A stretch of DNA of 32,000 nucleotides from Candidatus Saccharimonadota bacterium (GTDB lineage: Bacteria; Patescibacteriota; Gracilibacteria; UBA4473), in assembly GCA_963677105.1 (NCBI GenBank), contig OY781871.1:930417-962416 (forward strand). The letters are read 5' to 3'. The position numbers and the translations under genes are program-made. Positions 3,432-29,008 of the stretch are shown here, one piece after another. Numbering within the stretch: position 1 is the stretch's first letter; each line of letters opens with the position of its first letter. Below the pieces are notes generated by a model. The model ran no database searches. It was not told the origin of the DNA and saw nothing but the letters and a program-made list of their open reading frames with translations.

Positions 3432-4600
3432 TGAATAAATCTTGTACTTGGAAACAACAAATGGGAGAATTTCTTTCTATTGGAGGAGAACTTTTGTTTT
3501 GGCTTACTTGGTGGTTACCAACAGGATTTTCCTTAGGAGGAAATCCTACGTTTTTTGGAGAATTTTATTCTGAATTATCAGTTATTTTACCAATCTCAGG
3601 AATGGGACTTATTTTGTGGTGGATTGGGAAATTAATTCTTGCTCCACGATTAAATCCTCAAAAAATAATTTTTCCACTTATTTGGTTGGTCGTGTGGGGA
3701 ATAAATACGATTTTTTCGTTTGATCCATCGATATCAATTTCTTATCTATTAGTGTGGGCGGTTGGATTATTAGCATTAGGAACGAAGGAAACTTTTTTCG
3801 CAGTTGGTGCACGACGTATCTTTTTTGGTCTAGGTCTCGCTCTTGGTTTTGCAGCTATTCGATGGTTCCCAATGTTAGACGTTTCGTCCGAACTTTTATC
3901 TATTGGTGCCGTTTGGGGATTAATTTTTCTTTCATGGGAACCAAGATTTTTCGGAAAGTTTTTTTGGCAAATGCTCTTTTTAATTGGAGTATTTTTTTCA
4001 GGAAGTTTGGCAGCACAATTTGCAGCGTTAATGGTGTTAGTTTTTGGACGAAGATGGTTTGGTATTTCTTCTGGAAAAAAATCACCTTTTTGGTTGGCGA
4101 TTATGATTTGGGGAATTGTTTTTGGATGGCAGTTGGCTGAAAACGGACCATTTATATTGAGAATGCAACCCTATTGGATACAGATTTTTCACGATTGGAA
4201 ACAATTCCTTTTGGGAGTAGGAGAAGGACAATTTCTCGTTGGATTACAACATTTTTCATCAACATTATTAGACGCAACTCAACTGCGAATTCCTGAGAGT
4301 GGAGCAATTATAACTTTTTTTGAACACGGAATTATTGGTGTGATTTCATTTCTTGTATTACTCCTTTTTACCAATTCAAAACGTCCGCCATTTCTTTCTT
4401 GGTGGTTAGTTTTCTTCTGGATTTTTTCTCCTGTATTTGTGACACGAGAAGAGGGAATACTGTTTCTTTTAGTATTACTAGCAACACAAATTCCAAGAGA
4501 ACGTATCGAAAAAAAACGAAAAAGACCTCAACGCCGAAAAAGAGTTGGGCGACCACGAACGACATCAATTGCGGAAGCAGGAGATTTACCAGCGAGTTGA
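3431..4600 (+). CDS. Polytopic membrane protein, O-antigen ligase/Wzy-like, with a highly basic C-terminal tail
   Basis: About 10 hydrophobic segments. A late loop LLGVGEGQF...IPESGAIITFFEHGIIGV resembles the GxGxGxF...HNxyLxxxxExGxxG region of the Wzy_C/O-antigen ligase family. The tail is KKRKRPQRRKRVGRPRTT. Its ATG overlaps the upstream TAA by 1 nt (TAATG). Confidence 0.5.
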   Translation: MNKSCTWKQQMGEFLSIGGELLFWLTWWLPTGFSLGGNPTFFGEFYSELSVILPISGMGLILWWIGKLILAPRLNPQKIIFPLIWLVVWGINTIFSFDPSISISYLLVWAVGLLALGTKETFFAVGARRIFFGLGLALGFAAIRWFPMLDVSSELLSIGAVWGLIFLSWEPRFFGKFFWQMLFLIGVFFSGSLAAQFAALMVLVFGRRWFGISSGKKSPFWLAIMIWGIVFGWQLAENGPFILRMQPYWIQIFHDWKQFLLGVGEGQFLVGLQHFSSTLLDATQLRIPESGAIITFFEHGIIGVISFLVLLLFTNSKRPPFLSWWLVFFWIFSPVFVTREEGILFLLVLLATQIPRERIEKKRKRPQRRKRVGRPRTTSIAEAGDLPAS

Positions 4601-5400
4601 ATTACTTGAAGCCAGAGAGATCCATTTTTACAGATTAGTTCAATACTTTGTTCACTTTTCTCAAGAGAACATTTGAGAATTTTAACAGGTCCACTTTCCG
4701 TCATAATAAAAATTCCTGGCCAAACATCAAATGCACGATATTTGTTCCAAATCGTTTCAGCAGATTCTGTTTTAAGAAAAATTTCTCCATTAGATTTTTC
4801 AAATTTCCCACAATGAGTAGCTTCTATTTCTTCCTGAGGAAGAGCGGGAAGTGTTTCGAAGTTTTTTACCAATTCAGGAAGAGCATCTGCAGATTTATTC
4901 GACCAATCGTTCCATAATTCTTTTGTTCCACGATTATTAATTTCTTCTTTCATTTGCCATAAAATATCTCCCGCATCGAGTTCTTTTACCATTTTTTGTA
5001 ATGTGATTCCTGAAATTGTATCACCATTTAAAATAGCAGATTGAACGGGTGAGGCGCCTCGCCATTTTGGTAATAATGAGAAGTGAACATTTACTGTTGG
5101 AGCGAGTTTCAAAGCTTCTTCTGGGAAAATAACACCAAAAGCAATTACAACTCCTAAATCAGGAGTAAGTTTTTTATAAACATCAATAATGTCGTTTTTT
5201 TTCTCTATTTCAAAAACAGAAAGATGTAACTTTTCGGCTTCTTTTTTCACAGGACAAGCAGTCAGAACTTGTTTTCGACCAACTTTTTTATCTGGTGGAC
5301 ACAACACTCCCAAAATTTCAATATCAGCATCGACTGAAAGTGCTTGTAAACTCGGGACAGCAATGTCGGGAGTTCCGGAAAAAAGTATTTTTCGTGCCAT
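4528..5400 (-). CDS. fmt: Methionyl-tRNA formyltransferase
   Basis: N-terminus is ILFSGTPDIAVPSLQAL. Formyltransferase core is NVHFSLLPKWRGASPVQSAILNGD, followed by a C-terminal beta-barrel-like domain. Confidence 0.9.
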   Translation of the reverse strand: MARKILFSGTPDIAVPSLQALSVDADIEILGVLCPPDKKVGRKQVLTACPVKKEAEKLHLSVFEIEKKNDIIDVYKKLTPDLGVVIAFGVIFPEEALKLAPTVNVHFSLLPKWRGASPVQSAILNGDTISGITLQKMVKELDAGDILWQMKEEINNRGTKELWNDWSNKSADALPELVKNFETLPALPQEEIEATHCGKFEKSNGEIFLKTESAETIWNKYRAFDVWPGIFIMTESGPVKILKCSLEKSEQSIELICKNGSLWLQVIQLAGKSPASAIDVVRGRPTLFRR

Positions 5401-5429
5401 TTTTATTCAATTGTGGCAAACTGCCATCG

Positions 5430-6056
5430 ATGCAAATCGTGCCAGAAATTCTCAAAAAAGTCGAACTTGCTGGAGCACAATTAGTTGCTGTGACGAAATA
5501 TTTTTCACCAGAGGAGACTAACAAGATTGTTTCTTATTTACGTAATACTGAGACAATTATTGGGTTTGGAGAAAACCGTGTTTCTCAAATTTCTGAAAAA
5601 AATATTGAGAGAAAGAAAATGCATTTCATTGGAAATATTCAATCTCGTGATATTCCTCAAATTTCAAAACATTGTTCAGTAATTCATTCTTTATGTTCTG
5701 TGAAACACGCAGAAATTTTAGCAAAACGAGAAGAATTACTAGCTGTTTTTATTCAAATAAATATTTCTCGTGAGCCTCAAAAATCAGGAATTATGCCAGA
5801 AGAATTAGAATCATTTTTGATCAAGATTCAAGAATATAATCTCGATATAAAAGGATTATCTGCAATAGGAGCAGGAGAATTTAATGAAAAACAAAAACGA
5901 GAAGAATTTCGGGAATTAATTTTTTTGCGAAACAAGTTTCTTCCAGGAAAAAAGATTTCTGCAGGAACTTCTCGAGATTTTGAAATCGCATTAGAAGAAG
6001 GAATAGAGATAGTTCGTATTGGAAGGGCGCTCTTTCAAAGTCCAAATAACAAATAA
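5430..6056 (+). CDS. yggS: YggS-family pyridoxal-phosphate-binding protein (alanine racemase N-terminal fold)
   Basis: LVAVTKYFSPEE carries the PLP lysine context, followed by GFGENRVSQ and a C-terminal IVRIGRALF. ATG 5430 is preferred because the track's upstream extension (5295) overlaps fmt and looks non-protein-like. Confidence 0.8.
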   Translation: MQIVPEILKKVELAGAQLVAVTKYFSPEETNKIVSYLRNTETIIGFGENRVSQISEKNIERKKMHFIGNIQSRDIPQISKHCSVIHSLCSVKHAEILAKREELLAVFIQINISREPQKSGIMPEELESFLIKIQEYNLDIKGLSAIGAGEFNEKQKREEFRELIFLRNKFLPGKKISAGTSRDFEIALEEGIEIVRIGRALFQSPNNK

Positions 6057-7078: not shown

Positions 7079-7149
7079 TCAAATATTAAAGTACAAATTA
7101 CAAACTTGATTCACTTTAAATCTTTATTAAATTTCATTACAATTCCTTT

Positions 7150-10100
7150 GTGAAAAACAAAATAAAAATCCTCCTGTTTTTATTAAGTCTGTTGTGCGGA
7201 TTTTTTCCTATGAATGTGATCGGAGAAATTGCTTCAGTCCAGCCAGCAAGATTGTATAAAGCAACTCATGCAGACAATAATTACGTAACATTTCCAAATG
7301 ATATTGGGAGTTTAAAAGGACATACTGTTCGATTTAGAACAATCTATGATTCTACGGTTTCTACATATGGTTTATTTGGAGCAACCGATTCAATAGGTCG
7401 TAGATTTGATATTTATTGTTATTCTGGTGGGTTTCGAGTATTTAATCCTAAAAATGCTACCTATTCGGAATACAGAAAATTTGGTGATTCTTTTGCCAAT
7501 GGAGATCTTTTAGATGTAGAGGTTACATGGAGTGATTTGGATGCAGTTGCTCCTACAGTAATCGTTAATGGAACTACATTGACGAGTGGTTCTGCAGGAA
7601 ACGTTGGACTAAGTGCTACAGTGAGCACGTTTTATCTTTATTCAATTGCAGTTGGAGGGGGAATAGGAAATTCTACATATGCGGGGAATAACTATCTTGG
7701 TGATGTGCGTGTTTATAATTCAAGCGATGAGTTGCTACACTCATGGCATTTAGATGAAGAAGAGGGAACAGTCGTGTATGACAGCATACAAGAGTGGGAA
7801 AGTGCAGAGTTAAATATTGGAAATGAGTTTATTCCATGGGGAGCTTCAGGATGGACTACACATACAAATGTTGCGGGAGGAGTTGAATTACAAAGTAATA
7901 CAAGCGCTGGAAGTTATACTGGAGTTGATCTAGATATGACCTGTGGAGAAGCCGATAATAAAACGTTTCGAGTTCAAGCAATTGTTGAGGTAACAAGTAT
8001 TGATACTGGAAATATAAATATAAAACTTGGTTCAGCTGGTGGTGGTTATACCGAATCAAGTGATCAGTATAGAATCTCAACTACGGGGACATTTTATATT
8101 GATGAGTTAATGGTCAAAGATTCATATATCGAAGAACATTCAACAATTCCTTTTGAGTTTTCTACATCGACAGATTCAGGTACAACAGCTACATATACGA
8201 TTTCTGATATTTCTGTAAAAGAAGTCCATGCACCTTCTCATGGAACAATATACAATGCGACTGAAAACACTTTTTTTACAGAAGATCCCCAATTTAAAAG
8301 TTATCAAAATGATTTTGGATACACAAATGTTATAAATAATAAAAGTGCGACTCGATATTGGGATACAGGTGTTACAGTTGGTTCTAGTGCAGATATTAAT
8401 CTCGAAAATTTAAAGGTAGAAGCACTTCTTAATGTTCAAACAGCGACAGCGAATCAATATGCTTTTCGAGTAACAAACAGTGGTACCGACGGAAGGTTCT
8501 ATGTTCGAAGTAATGGAACAGGTGGATTTCAATTTGGAAATGCTGAAATATACCCCGTTTCCACAGGTTTATTTGAAGTAGGTGAATGGATAAAAGTAAC
8601 GGCAGTAAGTCTTGATGGGATATATATAAATGATGTGAAAAAAATTGATACGAGTGAAGGGACGATTGGTACTCAAGCAGTAAACACACCATTACTTATT
8701 GGAAATACTTCAAATTCTTTATTACAAGGCATAAAGTATTTTAAAATTTACGACGGAGACACTCTAATAAAAATAATAACAGTTAATGATGATGGAGAAT
8801 TTGAAGATCAAGATGGGAATGTTTTAACAGCAAGTGGAACGGGAGATTATTCGAGTATGAAAATACCTGTTGTAATAGATAAAATGGGAATGGCTCAATC
8901 GAATGATGTAGCAGGTGGTTCTTTAGACTCTACGTATTCAGGAATTACTAAGAATGAAATACAATTGGCAGAATCAAATGTCGCCCAATTTGATGGAACA
9001 GATGATTGGGTGAAAATTCCAGGTTCAGGAACACCTTTTGCGGGGAAAGCTTTTACTAGATTTGAAACTAAAATATATCCGACTTCTACAGCGACATATC
9101 TTTCATTATTCGATACAGGAATGGGATATCAAATAAAAGGATGGAGATCTTTTTTAAATTCTTCAAATCAAGTGGCAACACAATTACATAGAAGTAGTGC
9201 TGTTGAGTCTATTACATCGACACTTTCTGTGAATTTGAATGAATGGAATACGGTACAAGTTGAAATTGATGAAGTTAATAAAAAAATGATTTATACAATA
9301 AATGGAACGAGTGAAGAAATTTCATATGTAAATGATTTCGTAAATGAATCTCATTCTGGTTATGCATGGGTTGGGTTTAGTGGAGGAATTTCCTATTACG
9401 GAGGTTTAATAGATTGGCTTGAATTTGATACAGAAGATAAAACCTATCGATATGATTTTGGAGAGGGAAATGGCGTTATTGTTTATGATAGAGTGCCAAC
9501 TGCTTACGGAGATAATTCAATAGTTAGTAATCTAGAAAATAGTACTCTAGCACCATATACAACTTTTACTTCTAATGGGTCAACAGGATTTGAAGCAGTA
9601 AGTGATGGAAGCGGAAGTCAGTATTGCGGAACAGCAGATGAAATAAGTATAATAACTGGAGAGAGTTATTTAGTAGAATTTGATTTAACTCTTAATAGTG
9701 GAACTGTGCCTTCTATAAGATTTTTATCTGGTGACGCAGCTGGTACGTCTTCAAATATTATTAATTCAGTAGAAGGTCATAATCAAGTTGTTTTAACAAC
9801 TACAAATACCACAACTGCTAGAATGCAGTTTAACAATCTCTCAGCGGTTGTCGATTTTGAAGTTTCTAATTTAACTATTAAAGAAATCTACTATCCAATT
9901 AATGGAACAATCACTAATGCAGATATAAATACTTTTTGGGTCACAGATAACACAACTTCAGCTGACAATCTGGTGAACGGATTTAGTGAAGCCAATATGT
10001 TAAACGGAGTAGATGATAAAACATTGATAACAGACTCTACGAATCTAGGTGGAACGAGAGCGGTAATTACTTGTCGGACAGATTCTTCTACTCGACAAGC

Positions 10101-12144
10101 AGTATTTTCTGGAGCATTTGATTCTTCTATTATTTATTTTGATTCTAGTGGATTGTTTGGTTCTGGAACGGCTGGTACGAGTGGAGTGTCAACAATAAAT
10201 GCTTGGAATGATGGAGAGTGGCATACTTTTGATATAACAAAAAATGGAACAAATGATTACACGATATTAGTAGATGGAGAGGATGATAGTGGAGGAGCTA
10301 GCACTGGATATAGGATAACAAATGCTGTTGGTATTGCACACAGTAGTCCCTTACTTCCTTTTGATGGAGAAATTAAAGAGATAGCTATTTATGACAATAG
10401 TGATGTGGTATTAGCTCATTATATAGCAGTAAGCGAGGGTAGATTCCAAGACACGGTTTCTGGTAATTATTATTCCAGTGATGGAAGTGGATATAAACAA
10501 ATAAATATTCCTTCTCAAATAGGAAATACGGGAGTAGATGTTAATGGAGATTTTTTGACAAATGTTCCGAAAGATCTGACGCATTCAGTTCTTGCCTATA
10601 AGACAGTGGGAAGTTTTGATGGAGTAGATGATTATATTGCACTTGGAGATATTGTACCTATTTACGACAGTTCTTTTACTGTTTCTATGTGGATTTATCA
10701 TTCAGCGATAGGGGATAGAGCGATTCTATTTGGAGATTATTCTGTTCCAGGATCAAATAATAGTATGAACCTTGAAATTCACACAGCAAATCAATTGCGA
10801 TTTTGGTGGGGAGGAAGTCCACAAGTATATGGTGCTAATAATACAATTCCTCTTAATGAATGGACGCATGTAACATTTGTGAGGGATAGGGAAAATAGTA
10901 AGGTGTATTCATACGTAAATGGCGTAAAAGACATTGATTACACAGGGGCAATTATTGATAGAACGCCTACTTCTGTTTCTTATATTGGGCGCGACGGAAG
11001 AACAGGAGCAACTGCTTTTGAAGGAAAAATAAGCGATTTTCGTGTATACGATCGTGCATTATCTGATGCAGAAATATTAAAACTTTATCAGAAGGAAAAT
11101 GTAGATTTAGGATTAGTTGCATATTATCCTTTTACAGAAGGAGCTGGCATAAACGTGTATGATGTGAAAGGAGATGATATTGCGACAATAAAAGAGACAA
11201 CTGCATCAGATTTTTGGGAGATAGATTCTACACTTCCATTTTCGCAATTAGAGAAAAATGGGTTCTCTCAAGCACTTGTAAATACAACGGATGGAACGGC
11301 TTATACGCCAAGCAATGTTGCGTATGGAGAATGGGAATTTGATCTCTATAAAGATGTTGGAAGTAACGTGAATTTTGTTCCTTTTATTAATTCTGACTCT
11401 GGAACAGGGGCATTAATGGATGGTTATGGTATTTTCTTTTATCCCACAACCAATACCATAGATTTCAGAAGATATGACGATGGTGTTTCGAGTCCGTTAA
11501 TGGCTACAGCGAGTGGTTATGTTGATAATAATACTTGGTATCGTCTTAAGATAACACGTTCTCTTTCTGGCGAGTTTACTATTTATATTAAAGGAGGAAG
11601 TTTTGGTTGGACGGATTGGACTGAAGTAGTTGAAAGTACGGGTTTAAATCCAAGAACAGATAATACTTACACAACATCGAATTATTTTGTCATAGATCTA
11701 GATGAAGGGGATGAAATAGCAAATGTTACGATTGGAAATCATAGAGCGACATTACATGAATTTGAAATGGGGACAGGGGAATATGAGAAAAAGTTTCTTC
11801 CAGCAAAAAATGGAAGTGGAACTGATGTATTAGGGAGCATATTACGATTATTTGGTAATGATACATCAAGAGCTTATACAACTTCAGATTTAGCAATAAT
11901 TGTTGCGAAGAGATTAGCAAAAGCAGGAGTAAATTATTGGAATTCTACAACACAAGAATTTCTGACTGGTCGAGCAGAAGGAACACTTGTAGATGTAACA
12001 TTAAATACAGATAAAATGAAAACAACAAGCGAGCTAGCTACTATTAGTAGTACAAATTCGGCGGAAGAAGGTCATCATTATTGGGACACTTTGTTGAGAA
12101 AATTTTTAATAGGACTTGCAAACGGAACATTGACAGACTTTTAG
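7150..12144 (+). CDS. Giant secreted multi-domain concanavalin A-like/LamG lectin-fold protein (1,664 aa)
   Basis: A GTG start gives the signal peptide KNKIKILLFLLSLLCGFF. One textbook LamG_3 module spans aa 1153-1314: FDGVDDYIALGD...SFTVSMWIY...NEWTHVTFVRD...VYSYVNGV...FEGKISDFRVYDRALSDAEILKLY. At least five more divergent copies of the same pattern and two CBM-like modules follow. Composition is N/T/S/G-rich with only 5 Cys. Confidence 0.85.
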   Translation: MKNKIKILLFLLSLLCGFFPMNVIGEIASVQPARLYKATHADNNYVTFPNDIGSLKGHTVRFRTIYDSTVSTYGLFGATDSIGRRFDIYCYSGGFRVFNPKNATYSEYRKFGDSFANGDLLDVEVTWSDLDAVAPTVIVNGTTLTSGSAGNVGLSATVSTFYLYSIAVGGGIGNSTYAGNNYLGDVRVYNSSDELLHSWHLDEEEGTVVYDSIQEWESAELNIGNEFIPWGASGWTTHTNVAGGVELQSNTSAGSYTGVDLDMTCGEADNKTFRVQAIVEVTSIDTGNINIKLGSAGGGYTESSDQYRISTTGTFYIDELMVKDSYIEEHSTIPFEFSTSTDSGTTATYTISDISVKEVHAPSHGTIYNATENTFFTEDPQFKSYQNDFGYTNVINNKSATRYWDTGVTVGSSADINLENLKVEALLNVQTATANQYAFRVTNSGTDGRFYVRSNGTGGFQFGNAEIYPVSTGLFEVGEWIKVTAVSLDGIYINDVKKIDTSEGTIGTQAVNTPLLIGNTSNSLLQGIKYFKIYDGDTLIKIITVNDDGEFEDQDGNVLTASGTGDYSSMKIPVVIDKMGMAQSNDVAGGSLDSTYSGITKNEIQLAESNVAQFDGTDDWVKIPGSGTPFAGKAFTRFETKIYPTSTATYLSLFDTGMGYQIKGWRSFLNSSNQVATQLHRSSAVESITSTLSVNLNEWNTVQVEIDEVNKKMIYTINGTSEEISYVNDFVNESHSGYAWVGFSGGISYYGGLIDWLEFDTEDKTYRYDFGEGNGVIVYDRVPTAYGDNSIVSNLENSTLAPYTTFTSNGSTGFEAVSDGSGSQYCGTADEISIITGESYLVEFDLTLNSGTVPSIRFLSGDAAGTSSNIINSVEGHNQVVLTTTNTTTARMQFNNLSAVVDFEVSNLTIKEIYYPINGTITNADINTFWVTDNTTSADNLVNGFSEANMLNGVDDKTLITDSTNLGGTRAVITCRTDSSTRQAVFSGAFDSSIIYFDSSGLFGSGTAGTSGVSTINAWNDGEWHTFDITKNGTNDYTILVDGEDDSGGASTGYRITNAVGIAHSSPLLPFDGEIKEIAIYDNSDVVLAHYIAVSEGRFQDTVSGNYYSSDGSGYKQINIPSQIGNTGVDVNGDFLTNVPKDLTHSVLAYKTVGSFDGVDDYIALGDIVPIYDSSFTVSMWIYHSAIGDRAILFGDYSVPGSNNSMNLEIHTANQLRFWWGGSPQVYGANNTIPLNEWTHVTFVRDRENSKVYSYVNGVKDIDYTGAIIDRTPTSVSYIGRDGRTGATAFEGKISDFRVYDRALSDAEILKLYQKENVDLGLVAYYPFTEGAGINVYDVKGDDIATIKETTASDFWEIDSTLPFSQLEKNGFSQALVNTTDGTAYTPSNVAYGEWEFDLYKDVGSNVNFVPFINSDSGTGALMDGYGIFFYPTTNTIDFRRYDDGVSSPLMATASGYVDNNTWYRLKITRSLSGEFTIYIKGGSFGWTDWTEVVESTGLNPRTDNTYTTSNYFVIDLDEGDEIANVTIGNHRATLHEFEMGTGEYEKKFLPAKNGSGTDVLGSILRLFGNDTSRAYTTSDLAIIVAKRLAKAGVNYWNSTTQEFLTGRAEGTLVDVTLNTDKMKTTSELATISSTNSAEEGHHYWDTLLRKFLIGLANGTLTDF

Positions 12145-12152
12145 TAACAAAA

Positions 12153-12180
12153 AAAACCCTTATCAGACGACAAGGGTTTT
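12153..12180. terminator. Bidirectional intrinsic terminator between the convergent giant gene and hppA
   Basis: AAAACCCTT (12153-12161) pairs with AAGGGTTTT (12172-12180) around a 10-nt loop. An A-run lies 5' and a T-run 3', so it reads as hairpin plus U-tract on both strands. There are only 3 G:C pairs. Confidence 0.55.
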
Positions 12181-12226
12181 AAATATCAAATTTTAACTTT
12201 GCACTTTGTTATTTAAAGCAAAGCGC

Positions 12227-14346: not shown

Positions 14347-15522
14347 CTAATTCTTCATTACGATCTTTATCCCTGGAAGTTCTTTTCCTTCAAGAAATTC
14401 GAGCATTGCTCCACCGCCAGTAGACACATGAGTAAATTGTTCTACGGAAAACCCCAGTGTTTTTAATGCCGCAACAGTATCTCCACCACCAACAATAGAT
14501 TTTGACATTTTATTTTTCGTGATAGATTGAGCAACAGCAATTGTCCCTGTGTCGAATGGTTTTTTCTCAAAAAATCCCACAGGACCATTCCAAATAACGC
14601 TTTGACTATGAGAAATTACTTCACTGAAACTTGAAATTGAATGAGGACCAAGGTCGAATATTTTCATGTCGCCACTTACGTCTTCGATTGGTACATAAAC
14701 AGAATCAGAATCTGGATCTGGATCACTTGCAACTTGAACATCAATTGGGAGGTGAATACTTGTTTTATATTCTTCTGCTAATTTTAAAACTTCTCTTGCT
14801 GTCTCAATTTCTTCTTCTTCGAATAAACTTTCTCCAATATCATATCCTTGTGCTGCCAAAAATGTGTTTGCAAGCGCACCTCCAATGAGAATGTTTTCAG
14901 CCGTTTTTGCAAAGTGTTTTAATACAACCACTTTTGTTTTCATTTTTGCTCCACCAACAACAACTGAGAGTCCTTTGATTTTATTAGTAGAAAGAAAGGG
15001 GGAGAGATGTTTGATTTCACTTTCAATAAGACGTCCAGCACATGTTTCTACACCTACTTCGGCAAGACCGACAACAGAAGCGTGTGCACGATGTGCAACA
15101 GAAAATCCATCAAGAACAAAAAGATCTGCCTCAAGTCCATCACGAATTTGTTTTGCGAAATTTGGATCATTTGATTTTTCTCCTTTCCAAAATCGAGTGT
15201 TTTCATGGAGCACTATTTTATCATCAATAGCAGTGAAATCAGAACGAAAATACACTTGTTCTCCCAATAATTTTGTAACAATAGGAACTAATATTTTTGT
15301 AGAAAGTTCGGGAACAATGTTTCCTTTTGGTCGTCCAAGATGAGTAAGTATGTGTACTTGCTTTGCGCCATTTTGCACTAAATATTGAAGTGTTGGCATA
15401 GCGAGAATAATACGACTATCATCCGTAATTTTTCCGTCTTTTATCGGAACATTAAAATCTACTCTTACAACAACTACCTTGTCTTTTACGAGCTCAGGAG
15501 TAAGTGGTTTGATGGAAATCAT
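14347..15522 (-). CDS. pgk: Phosphoglycerate kinase
   Basis: VVVRVDFNVPIKDGKITDDSRI, LTHLGRPKG, VVGGAKMKTKV and STGGGAMLEFLEG. ATG 15522 (MISIKPL...) is preferred to the track start at 15576. Confidence 0.93.
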   Translation of the reverse strand: MISIKPLTPELVKDKVVVVRVDFNVPIKDGKITDDSRIILAMPTLQYLVQNGAKQVHILTHLGRPKGNIVPELSTKILVPIVTKLLGEQVYFRSDFTAIDDKIVLHENTRFWKGEKSNDPNFAKQIRDGLEADLFVLDGFSVAHRAHASVVGLAEVGVETCAGRLIESEIKHLSPFLSTNKIKGLSVVVGGAKMKTKVVVLKHFAKTAENILIGGALANTFLAAQGYDIGESLFEEEEIETAREVLKLAEEYKTSIHLPIDVQVASDPDPDSDSVYVPIEDVSGDMKIFDLGPHSISSFSEVISHSQSVIWNGPVGFFEKKPFDTGTIAVAQSITKNKMSKSIVGGGDTVAALKTLGFSVEQFTHVSTGGGAMLEFLEGKELPGIKIVMKN

Positions 15523-15618: not shown

Positions 15619-17034
15619 ATGGAATTGGAAGCAATTATTGGTCTCGAAATACATGCACAACTTTCAACGGCATCAAAACTTTGGTGTGGTTGTGACAATG
15701 ACGCATTTGGAGCAGAACCTAATTCGCGAATTTGTCCTGTTTGTTGCGGATTTCCGGGAATGTTGCCCGTTCTAAATAAAGAAGCGTTGCGTTTAGCAAT
15801 GCGAGCATCAAAAGCATTGGGATGTGAGATACAAGAGTTTTCAAAGTTTGATCGTAAGAATTATTTTTATCCAGACTTACCGAATGGATATCAAATTACA
15901 CAATATGATCAACCGTTAGCATTGTCAGGAAAAGTGGAGATTATACACAACGGAAAACATAAAAAAATAGGTATTACTCGAATTCATATTGAAAATGACG
16001 CAGGAAAATTGACACATGAAAAAAAAGGAACATTCATTGATTTCAATAGAGCTGGATCACCTTTGATCGAAATTGTTACAGAACCAGAACTTCGTTCTCC
16101 ACAAGAAGCAAAAATTTTCGCCCAAGAATTGCAAAAGATTTTACGAGCCGTTGGTTCCTCAGAAGCAGATATGGAAAAAGGAATGATGCGATTTGATGCG
16201 TCAATTTCATTACGTCCCGTTGGAGACAAAAACTTATATCCACGGTCTGAAATAAAAAATTTAAACACATTTTCGGGATTAGCGCGTGCGCTTGAATTCG
16301 AAATAGAACGTCAAACAAAATTATGGGAGAAAAATGAACGTCCTCAATTAGAAACGACAAGAGGATTTGATGATGCGACAGGAAAAACGAAGTTGATGCG
16401 AAAAAAAGAATCAGCAGATGATTATCGTTATTTTCCAGAACCAGATTTGCCTCCATTACAGTTTACTCAAAAAGAAATAGAACAGTTGATAGGGGATTTG
16501 CCAGAATTACCGATTGAGAAATATATGCGTTATAAAAGCGAATTAGGGCTTACTGACGCAGAATCATTACGGTTATCTGAAGAACCAGCATTGGCAAAGT
16601 TTTTTGAAACAGCGCTTGAAAAATCAACAGAACCACGAAAAGTGGCGAATTTATTATTATCAGTGGTATTAGCAAAAACAAATTGGCAACAAACAGATAT
16701 TACGCCACAACATTTAGTAGAAGTGGTAGATTTGATTTCAGCAGGAAAAATATCGTCGACTGGAGGAAAACAGATTATAGAAGCGGCAATGAAAATGGGA
16801 AAATCGGCAATAGAATTAATGGATGATCTGGGGTTGAAACAGGTTTCAGATACGGGACAGCTTGAAGAATGGATTAATGAGATGTTAGAAGAAAACAACG
16901 AGACAGTAGAACAATTTCGTGCCGGAAAAGAGAAAGTATTAGGGTTTCTTGTGGGACAAGTTATGAAAAAATCATCAGGAAGTGCAAATCCATCTGTGGT
17001 TCAAGAAATATTATTGGGAAAATTAAAGCAATGA
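15619..17034 (+). CDS. gatB: Asp/Glu-tRNA(Asn/Gln) amidotransferase subunit B
   Basis: GLEIHAQL, CPVCCGFPGMLPVLN, RKNYFYPDLPNGYQITQ, IENDAGK, and the C-terminal YqeY-like tail GFLVGQVMKKSSGSANP. Confidence 0.95.
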   Translation: MELEAIIGLEIHAQLSTASKLWCGCDNDAFGAEPNSRICPVCCGFPGMLPVLNKEALRLAMRASKALGCEIQEFSKFDRKNYFYPDLPNGYQITQYDQPLALSGKVEIIHNGKHKKIGITRIHIENDAGKLTHEKKGTFIDFNRAGSPLIEIVTEPELRSPQEAKIFAQELQKILRAVGSSEADMEKGMMRFDASISLRPVGDKNLYPRSEIKNLNTFSGLARALEFEIERQTKLWEKNERPQLETTRGFDDATGKTKLMRKKESADDYRYFPEPDLPPLQFTQKEIEQLIGDLPELPIEKYMRYKSELGLTDAESLRLSEEPALAKFFETALEKSTEPRKVANLLLSVVLAKTNWQQTDITPQHLVEVVDLISAGKISSTGGKQIIEAAMKMGKSAIELMDDLGLKQVSDTGQLEEWINEMLEENNETVEQFRAGKEKVLGFLVGQVMKKSSGSANPSVVQEILLGKLKQ

Positions 17035-17924
17035 AATTCTTTTCGTTACCGAAAAAAGTAATAGTTATGGAATTATTATTGCTGAGTGTGAGTGTATTTT
17101 TTTTGTTTCTCGTATATAAAGGAAATACAGAGTTTCGTGTAGTTGGAACGATAGGATTATTATGTATTTTGTGGGGAAGTTTTATTGAGCCATTACTTTT
17201 AGTCATTCGAAAAAATGTTTTCCAAGAAGATTCTCTACAAGGATTACGAATAGCAGTGATATCGGATCTTCATATCGGGATATTTTGTTCGAAAAAAAAT
17301 CTAGCGCGCATTGTGCGAAAATTAAATACATTAGATGTAGACGCAGTTTTAATTCCCGGAGATTTTCTTTATGGAAAGGCAATAGATTTTGCAGGAGAAT
17401 TAGAACCACTTTCTCATATAAAAGCTCCAGTATTTGTGACACTCGGAAATCATGACCATATTTTTAAAGGAAAAGATTCGGGTATTTCTTTTTTGAGAAA
17501 AAAATTAGTATCGTTTGATGTCCGTGAGTTAAAAAATGAAGCAATTAAGTTCAAAGAAAATATTTGGTTTGTTGGAGTAGATGATAATGATTCGGGATTT
17601 GATGATTTATTGATAGCATTTCAAAATGTACCAGAAAATGCGGCAACTATTTTACTCGCGCATTCACCCGATATTCTACAAGAAAAACTTTCTGCTCGTG
17701 CAAACTTCATTATTACAGGACATACTCATGGCGGACAGATTCGTATGCCTTGGGGAAGTATTCCATTTGTAATTCCAATAAATGATTCAACGTATGATCG
17801 TGGATTATTTTCTGAAAAAAAGTTATTAGTAACTTCAGGAATAGGAATGGTCGGAATACATGCTCGATTTCTTAATCCGCCAGAAATACGAATAATTTCA
17901 TTTATTTCGTCGGATTCGAATTGA
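17031..17924 (+). CDS. Membrane-anchored calcineurin-like metallophosphoesterase (YkuE/YaeI-like), paralog 1
   Basis: Two N-terminal TM helices are followed by the MPE motifs SDLHIG, PGDF, GNHDH, LAHSPD and GHTHGGQI. Its ATG overlaps the gatB TGA (ATGA at 17031-17034). Confidence 0.8.
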   Translation: MKFFSLPKKVIVMELLLLSVSVFFLFLVYKGNTEFRVVGTIGLLCILWGSFIEPLLLVIRKNVFQEDSLQGLRIAVISDLHIGIFCSKKNLARIVRKLNTLDVDAVLIPGDFLYGKAIDFAGELEPLSHIKAPVFVTLGNHDHIFKGKDSGISFLRKKLVSFDVRELKNEAIKFKENIWFVGVDDNDSGFDDLLIAFQNVPENAATILLAHSPDILQEKLSARANFIITGHTHGGQIRMPWGSIPFVIPINDSTYDRGLFSEKKLLVTSGIGMVGIHARFLNPPEIRIISFISSDSN

Positions 17925-22779: not shown

Positions 22780-23919
22780 TCAATTTATTATTTCAAATCC
22801 TGCTTCGCGAGCGCTTTTTATATTTTGAAAATATTTTATAGGCTCAAGTCTTTTGTACCAACTACTTTTCGGCGTATGAGCTTTTCCACTTTTAGAAATT
22901 TTTATAGGACAATTTACATCAAAAACAGATTTCTTTTGTACTTTCCCTTGAAGTGCTTCTGTTGCGCAATTAATCCATGCACCACGAGGATTTTTATATA
23001 CTTCTTCCTGAAGGGCTAAAAATTCTGTTTTGAATTGAGTATCGACTTCATTGAAAAAAGTTTTCCCGTATCCATTTTTAATCATTTCTTTATTTATATG
23101 TCGAGGTTGTCCAATTTTGTTAAGTTCTTTTGGAATCCATACATGGCGTAAAATACAACGTTTATCGTCCAACTGAGATATGTCTTGAGTGAGTTCTATG
23201 TTTTTTCCTAGAATTAATTGAGAAAGAAAATCTCTTGATTCTTTGCCAAAACATTGATGTCCACGTCGTGTATCAAGTGGTGATGGAGTTGCAATTCCTA
23301 ATAAATGAACGCATGCACCATTTTCAAGAGTAATTAGGTTTCCACTTTCAATAGAAGCAACTCGTCCAATTGATATAGGAGCAAGTAAATGAGCAAATTT
23401 CTTTTTCCAATTCATTGTAATGACACCTGCGTTTTTCCTTATTTTTTCATTCATTTTTTGATACATTGGTTTATCCCAAACACCAATCTTATTTTGAAAA
23501 GCAACTGCTTCTGCTTTTTTAAATTTATTATCGAATCGAGTGTTAATAGAATCTGATTTAAAATGACCAAGACCCTTTTTTAGAAGGAGTTCTACAAGAT
23601 TTTCTCCATTTTCTAATTTTACATGACGAGGATAAACATTATTGTTTCGAGAAACCTGATCTTCAAGTATTTTTATATTTTGTGTTTCAAAAATAAGTTT
23701 TAAGAGACGATAAGTTTGTCGAGAAGTTCCTCGTTCTTTTCTTGTGGGAAAGAGGTGATCTGGTCCATCAAATCCGATGAGTTGTATTACTTTTCCATCA
23801 GCAAGAAGGGCATGTTCAGTATCAATAGTTCGTATTACTTTTGAGGGTTTCCAATTAAGGGCTGATACAGAACATGTAGTAATAACACCGATTAACAAAT
23901 AATATATTTTATATTTCAT
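22780..23919 (-). CDS. Secreted protein with two staphylococcal-nuclease (SNase/thermonuclease)-like domains and a C-terminal small conserved motif
   Basis: Signal peptide MKYKIYYLLIGVITTCSVSA. Domain 1: IDTEHA...IQLIGFDGPD...YPRHV...KIGVWD. Domain 2: IESGNLI...VHLLGIATPS...ILRHVW...NPRGAW. The tail is CPIKISKSGKAHTPKSSWYKRL...SAREAGFE. ATG 23919 (or 23934) is preferred to the track start 24078, which overlaps tig. Confidence 0.7.
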   Translation of the reverse strand: MKYKIYYLLIGVITTCSVSALNWKPSKVIRTIDTEHALLADGKVIQLIGFDGPDHLFPTRKERGTSRQTYRLLKLIFETQNIKILEDQVSRNNNVYPRHVKLENGENLVELLLKKGLGHFKSDSINTRFDNKFKKAEAVAFQNKIGVWDKPMYQKMNEKIRKNAGVITMNWKKKFAHLLAPISIGRVASIESGNLITLENGACVHLLGIATPSPLDTRRGHQCFGKESRDFLSQLILGKNIELTQDISQLDDKRCILRHVWIPKELNKIGQPRHINKEMIKNGYGKTFFNEVDTQFKTEFLALQEEVYKNPRGAWINCATEALQGKVQKKSVFDVNCPIKISKSGKAHTPKSSWYKRLEPIKYFQNIKSAREAGFEIIN

Positions 23920-24011
23920 TAAAAATACGCTCATTGAGATACAAAAAATTGTCAAAAAAAATATTTTCGTTACCCTCTGCTCGTATAACTTTTTCTTAAA
24001 AGAACGAAAAT

Positions 24012-25259
24012 ATGGTTGATTACAAAACAATTTCAGGTTCACGTATAGAATTTCAACTCGAAATTTCTGAAGAATCAATTAAAAAAGCGCATAAAATAAC
24101 AATTGATTCCTTTCGTAAAAAAGTTGGAGTGAAAGGATTTCGAAAAGGACATGCGCCAGATGAGGTTGTATTACAGTCTGTTGGACTTGAACGAATCTCA
24201 TACGAAGCGATGAATAGAGCTATAGACATGGAATATAAGGGATTTTTATCGAAAAATGATATCTCTCCAGTAAGCGCACCATCTGTTGACGTGAAGGATT
24301 GGGAAAAGAAACCACTTCAAGTAAAATGTATAGTTGAAGTATATCCAGAAGTGAAATTAGGTGATTTTTCAAAAATAAAAGTAGCGCCAATTGATGTAAA
24401 GGTGGAAGAAAAAGAAATTGATGATGTTATATCTACAATTATGTCCGATTCACAACTTGGAAAAAAAGTTGATCGTACAGCGAAGAAAGGAGATATTGTC
24501 GTGATTGATTTTCTGGGAAGAGGAAAAGATAATTCAGTTTTGCCACGAACAGACGGAAAAGAACAACGTGTTCGTCTAGGAATAGGGCACTTTTTGGAAG
24601 ATTTAGAAGCTGGAATTATTGGAATGAAGGCAGGAGAAGAAAAGAAGGATATTAAGGTGAAATTTCCGAAGAATTATCATTCTTCTGATATGGCAGGGAA
24701 GACAGTTCCATTTGAAGTAAAAGTACATTCCGTCGAAGAAATTTCAGTGAAAGACTTTGATGAAGCAATGATTGAGAAGGTAACAGGACAGAAAAAAACA
24801 GTGGAATTATTTCGAAAAGATTTAAAAAGTATGATCGTAGCAAATAAAACACAGACAGAGAAAAAGAAGCGAATAGAGGAGTATCAAGATAAGTTAGTTA
24901 AAATGACAAAATGTGAATTGCCAGAAAGTTGGATTCAAGGAGAAGTTAATTCTCGAATGGAACGACTCAAGGCGTCTCCACAGTTTCAACACGATCCAGA
25001 TGCTTTTTGGAAACAAGTTGGGAAAACAGAAGAAGCCATGAAAAAGGAGTTTATAGGTTCTTCAGAAGAGAGTTTAAAATCGTATTTAGCCTTAGTGGAG
25101 GCTGTTAAACAATCAAATATTATGCTTTCCGCAGAGGAGGAAAAAGAAGCCCTTCATGAAGCAGGGCATGCTCCAGAAAATGTTTCAAAAGAACAAGCCA
25201 TGGAGAAAGCAGTTTTAAGTAGAAAAATTGACAAGTTCCTTGAGCAGGCAGTATCCTGA
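24012..25259 (+). CDS. tig: Trigger factor
   Basis: N-terminal ribosome-binding signature GFRKGHAP. A central FKBP-like region (GDIVVIDFLG...GMKAGEEK) and a helical C-terminal arm domain follow. Confidence 0.9.
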   Translation: MVDYKTISGSRIEFQLEISEESIKKAHKITIDSFRKKVGVKGFRKGHAPDEVVLQSVGLERISYEAMNRAIDMEYKGFLSKNDISPVSAPSVDVKDWEKKPLQVKCIVEVYPEVKLGDFSKIKVAPIDVKVEEKEIDDVISTIMSDSQLGKKVDRTAKKGDIVVIDFLGRGKDNSVLPRTDGKEQRVRLGIGHFLEDLEAGIIGMKAGEEKKDIKVKFPKNYHSSDMAGKTVPFEVKVHSVEEISVKDFDEAMIEKVTGQKKTVELFRKDLKSMIVANKTQTEKKKRIEEYQDKLVKMTKCELPESWIQGEVNSRMERLKASPQFQHDPDAFWKQVGKTEEAMKKEFIGSSEESLKSYLALVEAVKQSNIMLSAEEEKEALHEAGHAPENVSKEQAMEKAVLSRKIDKFLEQAVS

Positions 25260-27355: not shown

Positions 27356-29008
27356 TTATGCTACATCAGATTTCTCTCCTAAATACGTCGTATATAAATA
27401 ATTTGTTTGAGCAGGGAATTCTGCTGCAAGTGTGTCGACTTGTTTTGCAACAGGAATAATTTCGTGTTTCTTGCGTAGTTTCCGTATATTTATTGTTGTA
27501 GTTTTCATTCGTTCTGCTATTTCTATATCACTAAAGCCAAGTACTTTTGCTTGAAGAAGAAGTTCTTTATTTATGGATTCTCGTTTATCTAATTCACGAG
27601 CACATACAGCAATACGATCTAATTGTTGCAAAAACCATCGATCGATTTTTGTCATTTCCCAAATCTTTTCTACATCAAATATTTCTCGATAAAGAGCTTG
27701 TGTTACAGCGAATAATCGTCGCGGAGAAGCAATGCGAATGGAGCTTTCTAGTTCAGAATCTTTAAATTTAATTGGCGAACAGAGAACTCCGTTTGATCCG
27801 ATTGCAAGCATTCGAACAGCTTTTTGTACTACTTCTGGAAAATTTCGTCCAAGAGCCATAACTTCTCCAACAGATTTCATTTCCGTTGCAATTTGATGAC
27901 TTACTTTTCGAAATTTTTGCAAATCCCAACGGGGGATTTTTAGTGCAACATAATCAAGTGCAGGTTCAAAGAAAGCAGTTGTTTTTTGCGTAATTGCGTT
28001 TGGAATTTCTGGGAGATTTTTCCCGAGAAGAATTTCGGCAGCAACGGCTGCAAGTGGATATCCAGAAGCCTTTGAAGCAAGCGCAGAACTTCGACTCAAT
28101 CGGGCGTTTACTTCAATAACACGATACTGTGTATCATCATTTGGATTTAGTGCATATTGAATGTTACATTCTCCCACAATTCCTAAATGACGGATTGTTT
28201 TTATCGCAACGGTTCGAAGGAGCTGAAATTCTCGGTTTGCCAATGTCATAGAAGGACTAATAACAATCGATTCTCCAGTATGAATTCCCAAAGGATCAAA
28301 GTTTTCCATATTCAACACAGTAATACAGTTGTCTGAGTTGTCTCGAACAACTTCATACTCAATTTCTTTCCATCCACGCAAATCCTCTTCAACGAGAACT
28401 TGTGGAGAGAAGGCAAGCGCTTCTTTTACCATTTTTTCAAAATCTTCTGGTCTCTCACAAAATCCAGAACCTTTTCCTCCAAGAGCAAATCCGGCTCGCA
28501 TAATAAGAGGAAACCCAATTTTTTTCGAAGCAGCAATAGCGTCTTCTAGTGAATACGCAGCAATTGAACGAGGAGTGAAAACATCGATTTCTTTTAATTT
28601 TTGTACGAAAATTTCTCTATCTTCAGTAGACTCAATCACGTTTACTGCTGTTCCCAAAACTTTTATCCCAAACTTTTTTAAAATACCTGATTTCTCGAGA
28701 GCAAGACCACAATTAAGCGCAGTTTGTCCTCCGAAAGAAAGAGCAAGTGCATCAGGTTGTTCTTGAGCAATAACTTTTACTACAAACTCAGGTGTGACCG
28801 GAGAAAAGTAGACTTTATCTGCTCCACAAAAATGAGGATCGGTTTCTATCCATTGAGGATCAGTTTGTACAGTTGCAATATTTGGATTAATGAGAATTAC
28901 CTCATGTCCAGCTTTTTTAAAGGTTTTGATAGCTTGTGAGCCAGAATAATCAAACTCACCTGCTTCACCAATTTTTAGTGCTCCAGATCCAAGAAGTAAA
29001 ATTTTCAT
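27356..29008 (-). CDS. carB: Carbamoyl-phosphate synthase large subunit, N-terminal half only (carboxyphosphate ATP-grasp plus oligomerisation domain)
   Basis: The sequence is colinear with E. coli CarB residues about 1-555: ILLLGSGALKIGEAGEFDYSGSQA, GGQTALN, EYEVVRD.SDNCI, IEVNARLSRSSALASKA.G.PLA, MKSVGEVMA.GR. It ends at VDTLAAEFPAQTNYLYTTY, the exact junction where the second homologous half normally begins. Confidence 0.9.
   Translation of the reverse strand: MKILLLGSGALKIGEAGEFDYSGSQAIKTFKKAGHEVILINPNIATVQTDPQWIETDPHFCGADKVYFSPVTPEFVVKVIAQEQPDALALSFGGQTALNCGLALEKSGILKKFGIKVLGTAVNVIESTEDREIFVQKLKEIDVFTPRSIAAYSLEDAIAASKKIGFPLIMRAGFALGGKGSGFCERPEDFEKMVKEALAFSPQVLVEEDLRGWKEIEYEVVRDNSDNCITVLNMENFDPLGIHTGESIVISPSMTLANREFQLLRTVAIKTIRHLGIVGECNIQYALNPNDDTQYRVIEVNARLSRSSALASKASGYPLAAVAAEILLGKNLPEIPNAITQKTTAFFEPALDYVALKIPRWDLQKFRKVSHQIATEMKSVGEVMALGRNFPEVVQKAVRMLAIGSNGVLCSPIKFKDSELESSIRIASPRRLFAVTQALYREIFDVEKIWEMTKIDRWFLQQLDRIAVCARELDKRESINKELLLQAKVLGFSDIEIAERMKTTTINIRKLRKKHEIIPVAKQVDTLAAEFPAQTNYLYTTYLGEKSDVA

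Follow-up and report, generated by a model that had tools for sequence, protein, structure and literature searches.

What is a 5-kb gene doing in a stretch of bacterial housekeeping genes, and what would its product do? The question is raised by 32,000 nucleotides of contig OY781871.1 (positions 930,417 to 962,416), referred to here as the window. One gene takes up 15.6% of it, agreeing with the share of about 16% given in an earlier note on this DNA, and is its sole non-housekeeping gene:

7150 to 12144, + strand: giant ORF (open reading frame), 1,664 aa, GTG start and TAG stop in the ORF listing

The giant protein is of an expected kind for Patescibacteria. It is probably, as judged from sequence, a Sec-exported multivalent carbohydrate-binding adhesin of the extracellular space or the cell surface. 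The earlier note had pointed the same way; its observation was confirmed and its interpretation is partly supported. To it are added a 560-aa internal duplication and membership of a family common to phages, which brings in a phage-related reading.

Export was addressed at the start codon. The leader was read as follows:

7150 to 7224, + strand: GTG start and signal peptide, aa 1-25, made up of MKNKIK, ILLFLLSLLCGFF and PMNVIG, then E26

This leader has the charged n-region, the h-region of 10-15 residues and the small residues at -3/-1 of a signal peptide, and hydrophobic 19-aa windows occur in the giant protein only at aa 3-28. In the public NCBI/ENA record (P0001, 1,644 aa) the protein starts at Met21, at the ATG at 7210 (MNVIG), and lacks the signal peptide. 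A protein made from this ATG would be cytoplasmic, the outcome that the earlier note had feared. ATG initiates better than GTG, and neither start has Shine-Dalgarno support; such motifs cannot discriminate between GTG 7150 and ATG 7210, because they are nearly absent throughout the window (1 of 22 gene starts, a weak GGAG). Against the ATG, the 20 codons upstream of it encode a textbook n-/h-region that is conserved in four homologous genes. The window leader, MKNKIKILLFLLSLLCGFFPMNVIG followed by E, aligns with that of the homologue P0004, MKKQIFPLLISLGFLCSFFVVEAAG followed by E; the leaders of the second giant gene of locus L001 (read from 10165) and of the gene in L092 (read from 1882) are MKKNIKFLLLSLCFLTGIFSVQAAG and MKNELKILLVSLCALCSFFPVQAAG, each again followed by E. 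No Met is found at the position of Met21 in any of the three (VVEAAGE, SVQAAGE, PVQAAGE). The GTG and a -10-like box are kept also at the DNA level: TA(C/G)AAT, 6-7 nt and then GTGAAAAA precede the three homologous genes in L001 and L092. The conserved stretches of -10-like box and GTG in the four family members, which come from different organisms, are:

Window, 7138-7157
L001, 4823-4842 and 10153-10172
L092, 1870-1889

A TA(C/G)AAT box 6-7 nt before a GTG that is followed by AAAAA could mean an mRNA starting at the GTG, leaderless or near-leaderless. From these comparisons the ATG start of the public record is probably wrong, and a cytoplasmic protein is highly improbable. Sec export of the giant protein through an n-h-c signal peptide, which the earlier note had proposed, is well supported by the conserved leader, with signal peptidase I probably cleaving after VIG25. 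Relatives of the cell type described below (P0020, P0025, P0007) carry signal peptides at their N-termini as well. Pattern and hydropathy scans of the giant protein found no LPXTG, canonical lipobox or C-terminal transmembrane segment, as had been noted before, and Pfam found no SLH or other S-layer motif; Cys16 lies in LLLC, a non-canonical lipobox.

What is exported is a chain of modules in the order signal peptide–U1–[J1–C1–U2–L1–U3]–[J2–C2–U4–L2–U5]–J3–U6–linker–tail (two repeats). Eight of these are beta-sandwich modules: five of LamG_3 type, one divergent concanavalin A (ConA)-like domain and two resembling carbohydrate-binding modules (CBMs) of the CBM_4_9 family. The earlier note had counted roughly eight such modules. 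The number held, and hhalign, AlphaFold2 (AF2) and Foldseek returned lectin/jelly-roll folds; two of the eight are CBM-like, not LamG. The modules, all on the + strand, are listed below; A1 denotes the family alignment, z values refer to local alignments, and pLDDT is the per-residue model confidence.

7225 to 7743, aa 26-198: U1, LamG_3-like (hhalign of U1 and U5 families 95.2%, E 2.9e-8, 138 columns)
7744 to 7782, aa 199-211: J1, WHLDEEEGTVVYD, first strand of a LamG_3 repeat
7783 to 8265, aa 212-372: C1, CBM-like, paralogue of C2 (C1/C2 z 4.7)
8266 to 8874, aa 373-575: U2, LamG_3-like, beginning HGTIYNATENTFF...FKSYQND
8875 to 8979, aa 576-610: L1 linker, KIPVVIDKMG..NDVAGGSL
8980 to 9450, aa 611-767: U3, LamG_3-like (U3/U5 z 9.7)
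9451 to 9489, aa 768-780: J2, YDFGEGNGVIVYD, from the motif scan
9490 to 9924, aa 781-925: C2, CBM_4_9-like (AF2 all-beta, pLDDT 94-98)
9925 to 10449, aa 926-1100: U4, LamG_3-like, beginning INGTITNADINTFW
10450 to 10605, aa 1101-1152: L2 linker, collinear with L1 and conserved in A1
10606 to 11121, aa 1153-1324: U5, canonical LamG_3 (Pfam PF13385, 3.7e-31)
11122 to 11163, aa 1325-1338: J3, YYPFTEGAGINVYD, followed by no CBM-like module in the window protein
11164 to 11784, aa 1339-1545: U6, divergent ConA-like jelly roll with the motifs AYGEWEFD and NNTWYRLKITR
11785 to 12141, aa 1546-1664: linker and C-terminal tail, in which a repeat of about 45 aa is present twice (about 1570-1612 and 1618-1664)

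Family profiles were built from the matches of an exhaustive search. AF2 was run on per-segment alignments (A5, A7), giving models of aa 760-1330 (34 rows) and of aa 1325-1664 (28 rows, mean pLDDT 74.8).

The LamG_3 assignment is anchored at U5, where Pfam Laminin_G_3 (PF13385, clan CL0004) matches aa 1157-1309 with 108.7 bits against a cut-off of 27.6, close to the aa 1153-1314 given in the earlier note; over the whole protein the family scores 143.5 bits across 5 stretches. The U5 model (pLDDT 75-95) matched pentraxins, sialidase lectin domains and the HCN domain of botulinum neurotoxin (BoNT) with Foldseek E values of 1e-8 to 1e-7, and the PDB matches of the aa 760-1330 model were lectin domains of trans-sialidases, pentraxins, BoNT HCN and CBM40. 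The homology of U1-U4 to LamG_3 is carried by the hidden Markov model (HMM) of the U5 family and by hhalign; none of the four passes Pfam alone. U4 is the clearest (hhalign against U5 99.76%, E 1.3e-27; HMM at aa 952-1083, independent E 2.1e-13) and has a weak Pfam Laminin_G_2 match at about aa 1014-1053. U3 (aa 611-757, independent E 1.3e-11; hhalign 99.05%) and U2 (aa 408-522, independent E 2.6e-9; hhalign 94.7%) follow. U1 is the weakest, its HMM match being marginal (0.13); the region of the homologue P0008 that aligns with U1 is a Pfam LamG_3 domain.

Neither C1 nor C2 of the window protein matches Pfam. The C2 equivalent of the homologue P0005 passes CBM_4_9 (PF02018) with 31.1 against 25.9 bits (2.5e-9). 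Homologues of C1 are P0012, P0108 and P0144, and C1 is collinear with C2 within the alignment of the two super-modules. This alignment, of aa 199-767 with aa 768-1324 (about 560 aa), reached z 13.2 against shuffles. Almost nothing of the similarity is left at the DNA level, and the duplication is therefore old. The strongest module pairs are U3/U5 and C1/C2, at the z values listed, and U4/U6 (z 4.2). L1 aligns with L2 (NIPSQIGNTGVDVNGDFL) and with FLPAKNGSGTDVLGSIL, which follows U6.

U6 has neither a Pfam family nor a PDB sequence match. It is only loosely tied to U5 (hhalign 77%; U5-family HMM weak, 1e-4). Its AF2 core is a beta-sandwich (pLDDT 70-94), for which Foldseek against the PDB returned CBM66 as the best match, together with galectins, GH16, neurexin LNS and pentraxin, with probabilities up to 1.0, E values of 1e-4 to 5e-3 and TM-scores of about 0.5 normalised to the target. 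The GH16 matches raise the question whether the protein is a secreted polysaccharide-degrading enzyme, in which U6 would be the catalytic domain, of GH16-like type, and the remaining modules would be CBMs that target the substrate. The matches to GH16 1,3-1,4-beta-glucanases have probabilities of 0.98-1.0 (ranks 25, 45 and 47), the acidic strand WEFD is conserved with a nearly invariant E, and ConA-like genes of phages have been read as glycoside hydrolases (PMC12911398). The best fold matches of U6, CBM66 and galectins, are nevertheless non-catalytic. The GH16 signature ExDx(x)E is absent; the U6 strand is GEWEFDLY, in which only WE(F)D is conserved and the first Glu is variable. No glycosidase family was found by Pfam or by PDB sequence searches. 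An enzyme is thus very unlikely. An apparent homology between C2 and U6 (hhalign 99%) was rejected as an artefact of U6 rows that carry a nested C2; once these rows had been cleaned, the value was 0.7%.

The tail, too, has no Pfam or PDB sequence match. Its two repeats (repeat z 13.0) each consist of a helix and three strands, which lie in the AF2 model at H254-264/E271-291 and H302-310/E319-339 (pLDDT 62-89). A search for the tail among 5.8 billion clusters gave one extra fragment only.

How are the CBM-like modules placed? The earlier note had seen a shared motif at the module junctions at aa 199, 768 and 1325. The positions are exact, and the motif is not a junction signal: (W/Y)x(L/F)xE(G)xGxxVYD in J1-J3 is the ordinary first strand of LamG_3. 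Every LamG_3 repeat in the tandem LamG_3 proteins P0002 and P0003 opens with ...GLVGWWKLDExSGTxAxDSSGNGNxGTL; in general terms these repeats open with (W/Y)x(L/F)DExxGxxxxD and close with ...RxYNRALSxxEIxxLY. The end of U5 together with J3 fits this template exactly: RVYDRALSDAEILKLYQKENVDLGLVAYYPFTEGAGINVYD. Past J1 and J2, a CBM-like module of about 150 aa stands in place of the SGNGN loop, and HGTIYNATENTFF or INGTITNADINTFW then takes the repeat up again. P0004, P0005 and P0006 have a third CBM-like insert, about 130 aa long, after J3; the window protein does not (A1 columns 1700-1850). In A1, H197, W199, H200, D202, E203, G206 and D211 around J1 are invariant, as are E772, G773, G775, Y779 and D780 in J2 and FKSYQN in U2. 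In about 40 other family members C2 lies within the hairpin of a U6-type domain, as ...WYRLKVARLQSEGVF-[C2]-DADTFAVFIKGGNFG..., and the window stretch that matches this hairpin is uninterrupted, WYRLKITRSLSGEFTIYIKGGSFG. Since it is nested in U6-type hairpins elsewhere and the same hairpin is uninterrupted here, C2 behaves in these alignments as a module inserted into loops of ConA-like domains. The nested topology in which J1 and J2 are first strands of the downstream LamG bodies is unproven, the AF2 junction strands having pLDDT <50.

A populous group of phage proteins of 450-1,000 aa (e.g. P0010, P0013, P0022 and P0024; loci L088 and L089) shows the arrangement ...NNTWYRLKVARLQSEGVFKDIPTLQ-[C2]-RRIYDADTFAVFIKGG..., with C2 nested in a U6-type ConA-like hairpin; neither module is in Pfam.

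Is the gene confined to this organism? A word-indexed search had returned only the protein itself and two generic LamG_3 proteins, which suggested an orphan. This reading was overturned by the exhaustive HMMER search (query aa 21-1150), which gave 229 matches at E ≤ 1e-3. A profile search of genome contigs with A1 found no relative in a collection that does not hold the source genome. The family falls into a cell type and a phage type. Cell-type members have the signal peptide and the YWD tail repeat and lie in housekeeping contexts, four different ones on the chromosome:

Window: nadK, giant, hppA
L001: S1, P0004, second giant, RuvB
L083: P0005, RuvB
L093: DnaB, pilin-like gene, S1, giant
L090: TIM, DUF3352, P0020, pyruvate kinase
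L092: KhpB, peptidase U32, giant

Fewer than 10 cell-type loci were found among about 15 billion proteins, and the tail repeat is confined to cell-encoded members. In L001 the second giant gene has a TAG (14848-14850) at the conserved Trp codon of NNTWYR, with in-frame homology continuing to 15456; either the gene is a pseudogene with a nonsense mutation or the sequence contains an error, and gene calling breaks it into ORFs of 1,547 aa and 146 aa.

Phage-type members lack the signal peptide and the tail repeat, have another N-terminus and end in a conserved ...YELDPYHxxFxNAExxKKRxxxxY...KIYKxIKKP. They were located as follows:

P0008, L084: after terminase, intein, portal, ChaB and major capsid genes
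P0013, L088 and L089: flanked by the capsid gene on one side and by connector, tube and tape-measure genes on the other
P0028: near an M15 peptidase (lysin-like gene)

In L084 an intein-containing ORF (3632-4828, Intein_splicing) comes right after the gene for the large terminase subunit. P0008 matches the window protein collinearly over both super-modules, shares family-specific motifs with it and is as similar to it (30% identity, aa 567-1127) as the cell-type proteins P0005 (30%) and P0006 (28%). C2 is the most widespread piece of the giant protein (132 of 149 best matches); two matches have it fused to tail-tube proteins, and a viral scan with alignment A10 found it in the IMG/VR contigs L094-L096. 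In BFVD, multi-LamG proteins of phages with a similar fold number in the hundreds, and in PHROGs U5 alone matches, to PHROG 8510 'virion structural protein'. The phage-type homologues have hardly any annotation. Their gene order suggests that they encode virion proteins and not metabolic cargo.

These relatives bear on a different account, in which the gene was exchanged with phages and now has a virus-related role, for example as a virion fibre domesticated into a secreted decoy or receptor mask against related phages, or as a remnant of a phage structural gene. The collinear P0008, P0028 and P0013 between capsid and tail genes or beside a lysin-like gene, the C2–tail-tube fusions, C2 in viral contigs and the BFVD proteins of the same folds speak for it, and the four chromosomal contexts of the cell genes suggest mobility. 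It is countered at the locus itself. No terminase, portal, capsid, tail or integrase gene was found around the giant gene in the window, and neither tRNA genes, flanking repeats nor a GC anomaly was found at the gene borders, so that no border of a mobile element is seen; the GC content of the gene equals that of its surroundings (0.355 against 0.358 for the window). The cell-type signal peptide, promoter/start region and tail are conserved, which argues for a long-established cellular function, and the S1-giant-RuvB locus is kept in three contigs. A present role connected with viruses is therefore unlikely.

A broader proposal, tentative and on the unlikely side, is that the giants of cells and the head-module proteins of phages form a single family with exchangeable ends, so that symbiont and phages would share glycan-recognition hardware. 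A signal peptide and YWD tail would give display on the cell; a phage N-terminus and a KIYKxIKKP C-terminus would give display on the virion. The cell may have domesticated a virion fibre for adhesion to its host, or a phage may have captured the adhesin of a cell. A captured adhesin could let the phage reach the habitat of its host, or could be passed to the cell as an 'adhesion AMG' (auxiliary metabolic gene).

Do the closest relatives of the organism have the gene? A search with GatB gave 580 relatives, and the best-matching ones (80% and 76% identity) carry the label Candidatus Peribacteria or Gracilibacteria; the top matches are all Patescibacteria of the Gracilibacteria/Peribacteria class. 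On this evidence the organism is a Patescibacterium of that class with a contig of 0.96 Mb, which bears out the reduced genome proposed earlier. TGA is the stop codon of 10 of the 22 window genes, and the standard code is therefore used, not code 25. Relatives L003, L004 and L012 keep the order solute-binding protein, hypothetical gene, fmt, yggS, nadK, slot, hppA, pgk and gatB, with proteins 56-93% identical. The nadK-hppA slot is occupied as follows:

Window, 7079-12226: giant gene
L004, 6041-6419: 380 bp, one 73-aa ORF
L012, 4306-4773: 470 bp
L003, 4850-6626: 1.8 kb, three unrelated small ORFs

A tblastn search of the giant protein against 80 GatB loci found nothing. As the slot content differs and this search was empty, the giant gene is a lineage-specific occupant of a variable slot, and its accessory status, claimed by the earlier note, holds in that the closest relatives, whose neighbouring proteins are 80-92% identical, lack it. 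The slot ORFs of the relatives differ among themselves and have no Pfam matches (L003 has a 204-aa protein with a signal-peptide-like N-terminus), and each relative has its own terminator hairpin before hppA.

Rarity and absence from relatives also bear on whether the protein could be a structural coat, an S-layer-like or fibrous component of the envelope that recognises no foreign ligand. It is large and exported, is built of beta-sandwich repeats, and has the Thr/Ser/Gly/Asn-rich and nearly Cys-free composition described before (T 10.7%, G 9.9%, S 9.4%, N 7.0%, 5 Cys); giant proteins have been proposed as the fibrous surface of a related bacterium of the candidate phyla radiation (CPR) (PMC8080830). 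For a core envelope component, absence of the gene from the closest relatives would be odd; the cell-type family is very rare, and Pfam found no SLH or S-layer motif. A coat protein is accordingly rated as quite improbable, below a virus-related role.

In the adhesin model, translation would begin at GTG 7150 and the signal peptide would direct export. After cleavage, about 1,640 aa would remain as a string of eight independent beta-sandwich modules, in which each CBM-like module separates the first strand of a LamG_3 repeat from its body. With many weak glycan sites, one such chain could bind with avidity to a surface coated with polysaccharide, be it a polymer or a different cell. The C-terminal pair of alpha/beta repeats may hold the protein on the envelope of its producer; it is the candidate for retention because it is the only part exclusive to cell-type genes. 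The gene would have come in by lineage-specific insertion into a variable slot of a conserved housekeeping block. It shares ancestry with proteins of phage virion modules in which the body is the same and the ends differ. Glycan binding, surface retention, the adhesin role and the identity of the target are inferred from the modules and their relatives; the episymbiotic lifestyle named in the earlier note is putative.

Several points weigh against this model. ConA-like and LamG folds serve protein-protein binding and catalysis as well as glycan binding. Only one of the eight modules, U5, passes a curated Pfam threshold, and AF2 confidence is low in U4 (patchy pLDDT of 30-80) and in the junction strands. 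The protein has no recognisable anchor (transmembrane segment, LPXTG, lipobox or SLH), so that retention rests on the uncharacterised tail. Homologues in phages leave room for a function that concerns viruses instead of a host cell.

The gene is set off from its neighbours by a gap of 71 bp on the 5' side, as had been noted, and of 82 bp on the 3' side, which contain the following signals:

7115 to 7143, + strand: promoter-like TTTAAA-17-TACAAT, the -10-like box ending 6 nt before the GTG
12153 to 12180, either strand: hairpin between the convergent giant gene and hppA, from folding

The folding energy of the hairpin, at z < -4 for either strand, is -11.4 kcal/mol for the + strand and -17.9 kcal/mol for the - strand. 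The bidirectional terminator of the earlier note stands as far as folding on both strands goes; the criteria of the terminator scan were passed only on the - strand, the hppA side, the stem on the + strand being followed by just UUUU. Bidirectional termination, weaker on the giant-gene side, is plausible.

The upstream neighbours are priA, a solute-binding protein gene, fmt, yggS and nadK. Downstream are hppA (convergent), pgk, gatB, two metallophosphoesterase genes, a Mur-ligase-like gene, rnhA and proS, and then a nuclease gene, tig, rplS, carA, carB and gatA. The longest-ORF starts of yggS (4528-5400, - strand, against 5295-6056, + strand) and of the nuclease gene (22780-24078, - strand, against 24012-25259, + strand) overlap their divergent neighbours by 67-105 bp, and the true starts are probably further downstream. 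The carB-like ORF (27356-29008) adjoins carA and encodes 550 aa, half the standard CarB size, with one pre-ATP-grasp, one ATP-grasp and one oligomerisation domain, in a genome of <1 Mb. An extra metallophosphoesterase paralogue (17031-17924) directly after gatB is a second strain-specific gene of the window; L003 and L004 lack it and have, after gatB, a 100-aa ORF and the second phosphoesterase.

How does the protein compare with known systems? CBMs known so far are as a rule attached to an enzyme, and the giant protein contains none; with CBM_4_9 and CBM66 it has in common a beta-sandwich fold, CBM66 being the best PDB match of the U6 model. The tandem proteins P0002 (1,672 aa) and P0003 (2,575 aa) consist, like the window protein, of repeated LamG_3 jelly rolls. 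Their identity to it is confined to U5 (5-19% of the query), and the window protein differs from them in having a single Pfam-level module, two CBM-like loop replacements, U6 and a novel tail. Phage multi-LamG/ConA-like virion proteins (PHROG 8510; BFVD, e.g. Q5GQG3 of Synechococcus phage S-PM2) have the same module types. P0008, P0028 and P0073 go further, with the module order and the motifs LHxWHxDE, FKSYQN and PNKTYxYxFGEGAG of the window protein. Phage members differ in lacking a signal peptide, in ending with KIYKxIKKP instead of the YWD tail and in their capsid-to-tail position. We know of no experimentally studied concanavalin/LamG surface protein of CPR or DPANN organisms.

In groundwater viromes, concanavalin/LamG proteins have been counted among the surface features believed to mediate attachment of CPR/DPANN cells to other microbes, and those encoded by some CPR/DPANN viruses were read as adhesion-promoting auxiliary genes (PMC11310336, PMC12911398). 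Those surface proteins agree with the present one in organism group, fold class and proposed attachment role; the studies name a category from domain annotation, whereas the present family is rare and has collinear, phage-encoded homologues. For Vampirococcus, a CPR predator, giant surface proteins were proposed to act in host recognition and attachment (PMC8080830). V. lugosii (Absconditabacteria) likewise has very large proteins, a reduced CPR genome and membership of a related class. The domains of its proteins (PKD, WD40, integrin, fibronectin, DUF11; PMC8080830) are unlike those of the window protein, and its lineage uses a different genetic code, the window using TGA as stop. The category is thus known and expected, while the family, its U6-type, C2 and tail modules and their nested arrangement appear to be undescribed. 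The same appears to hold for the split into a cell type and a phage type with swapped ends and a capsid-to-tail position in phages.

Partner-cell recognition by ultra-small Patescibacteria is, to our knowledge, little understood outside type IV pili, and obvious candidates for determinants of host range are exported multi-lectin proteins of strain-specific occurrence. The locus offers a well-delimited candidate, with module borders, a corrected start and natural relatives without the gene. If confirmed, the virion position of the phage homologues would change the reading of published 'concanavalin/LamG auxiliary metabolic genes' of CPR phages, which may be virion proteins. If the cell and phage proteins are indeed one family with exchangeable ends, C2, U6 and the modules at both ends would represent domain families of the interface between phage and symbiont that are new and unannotated.

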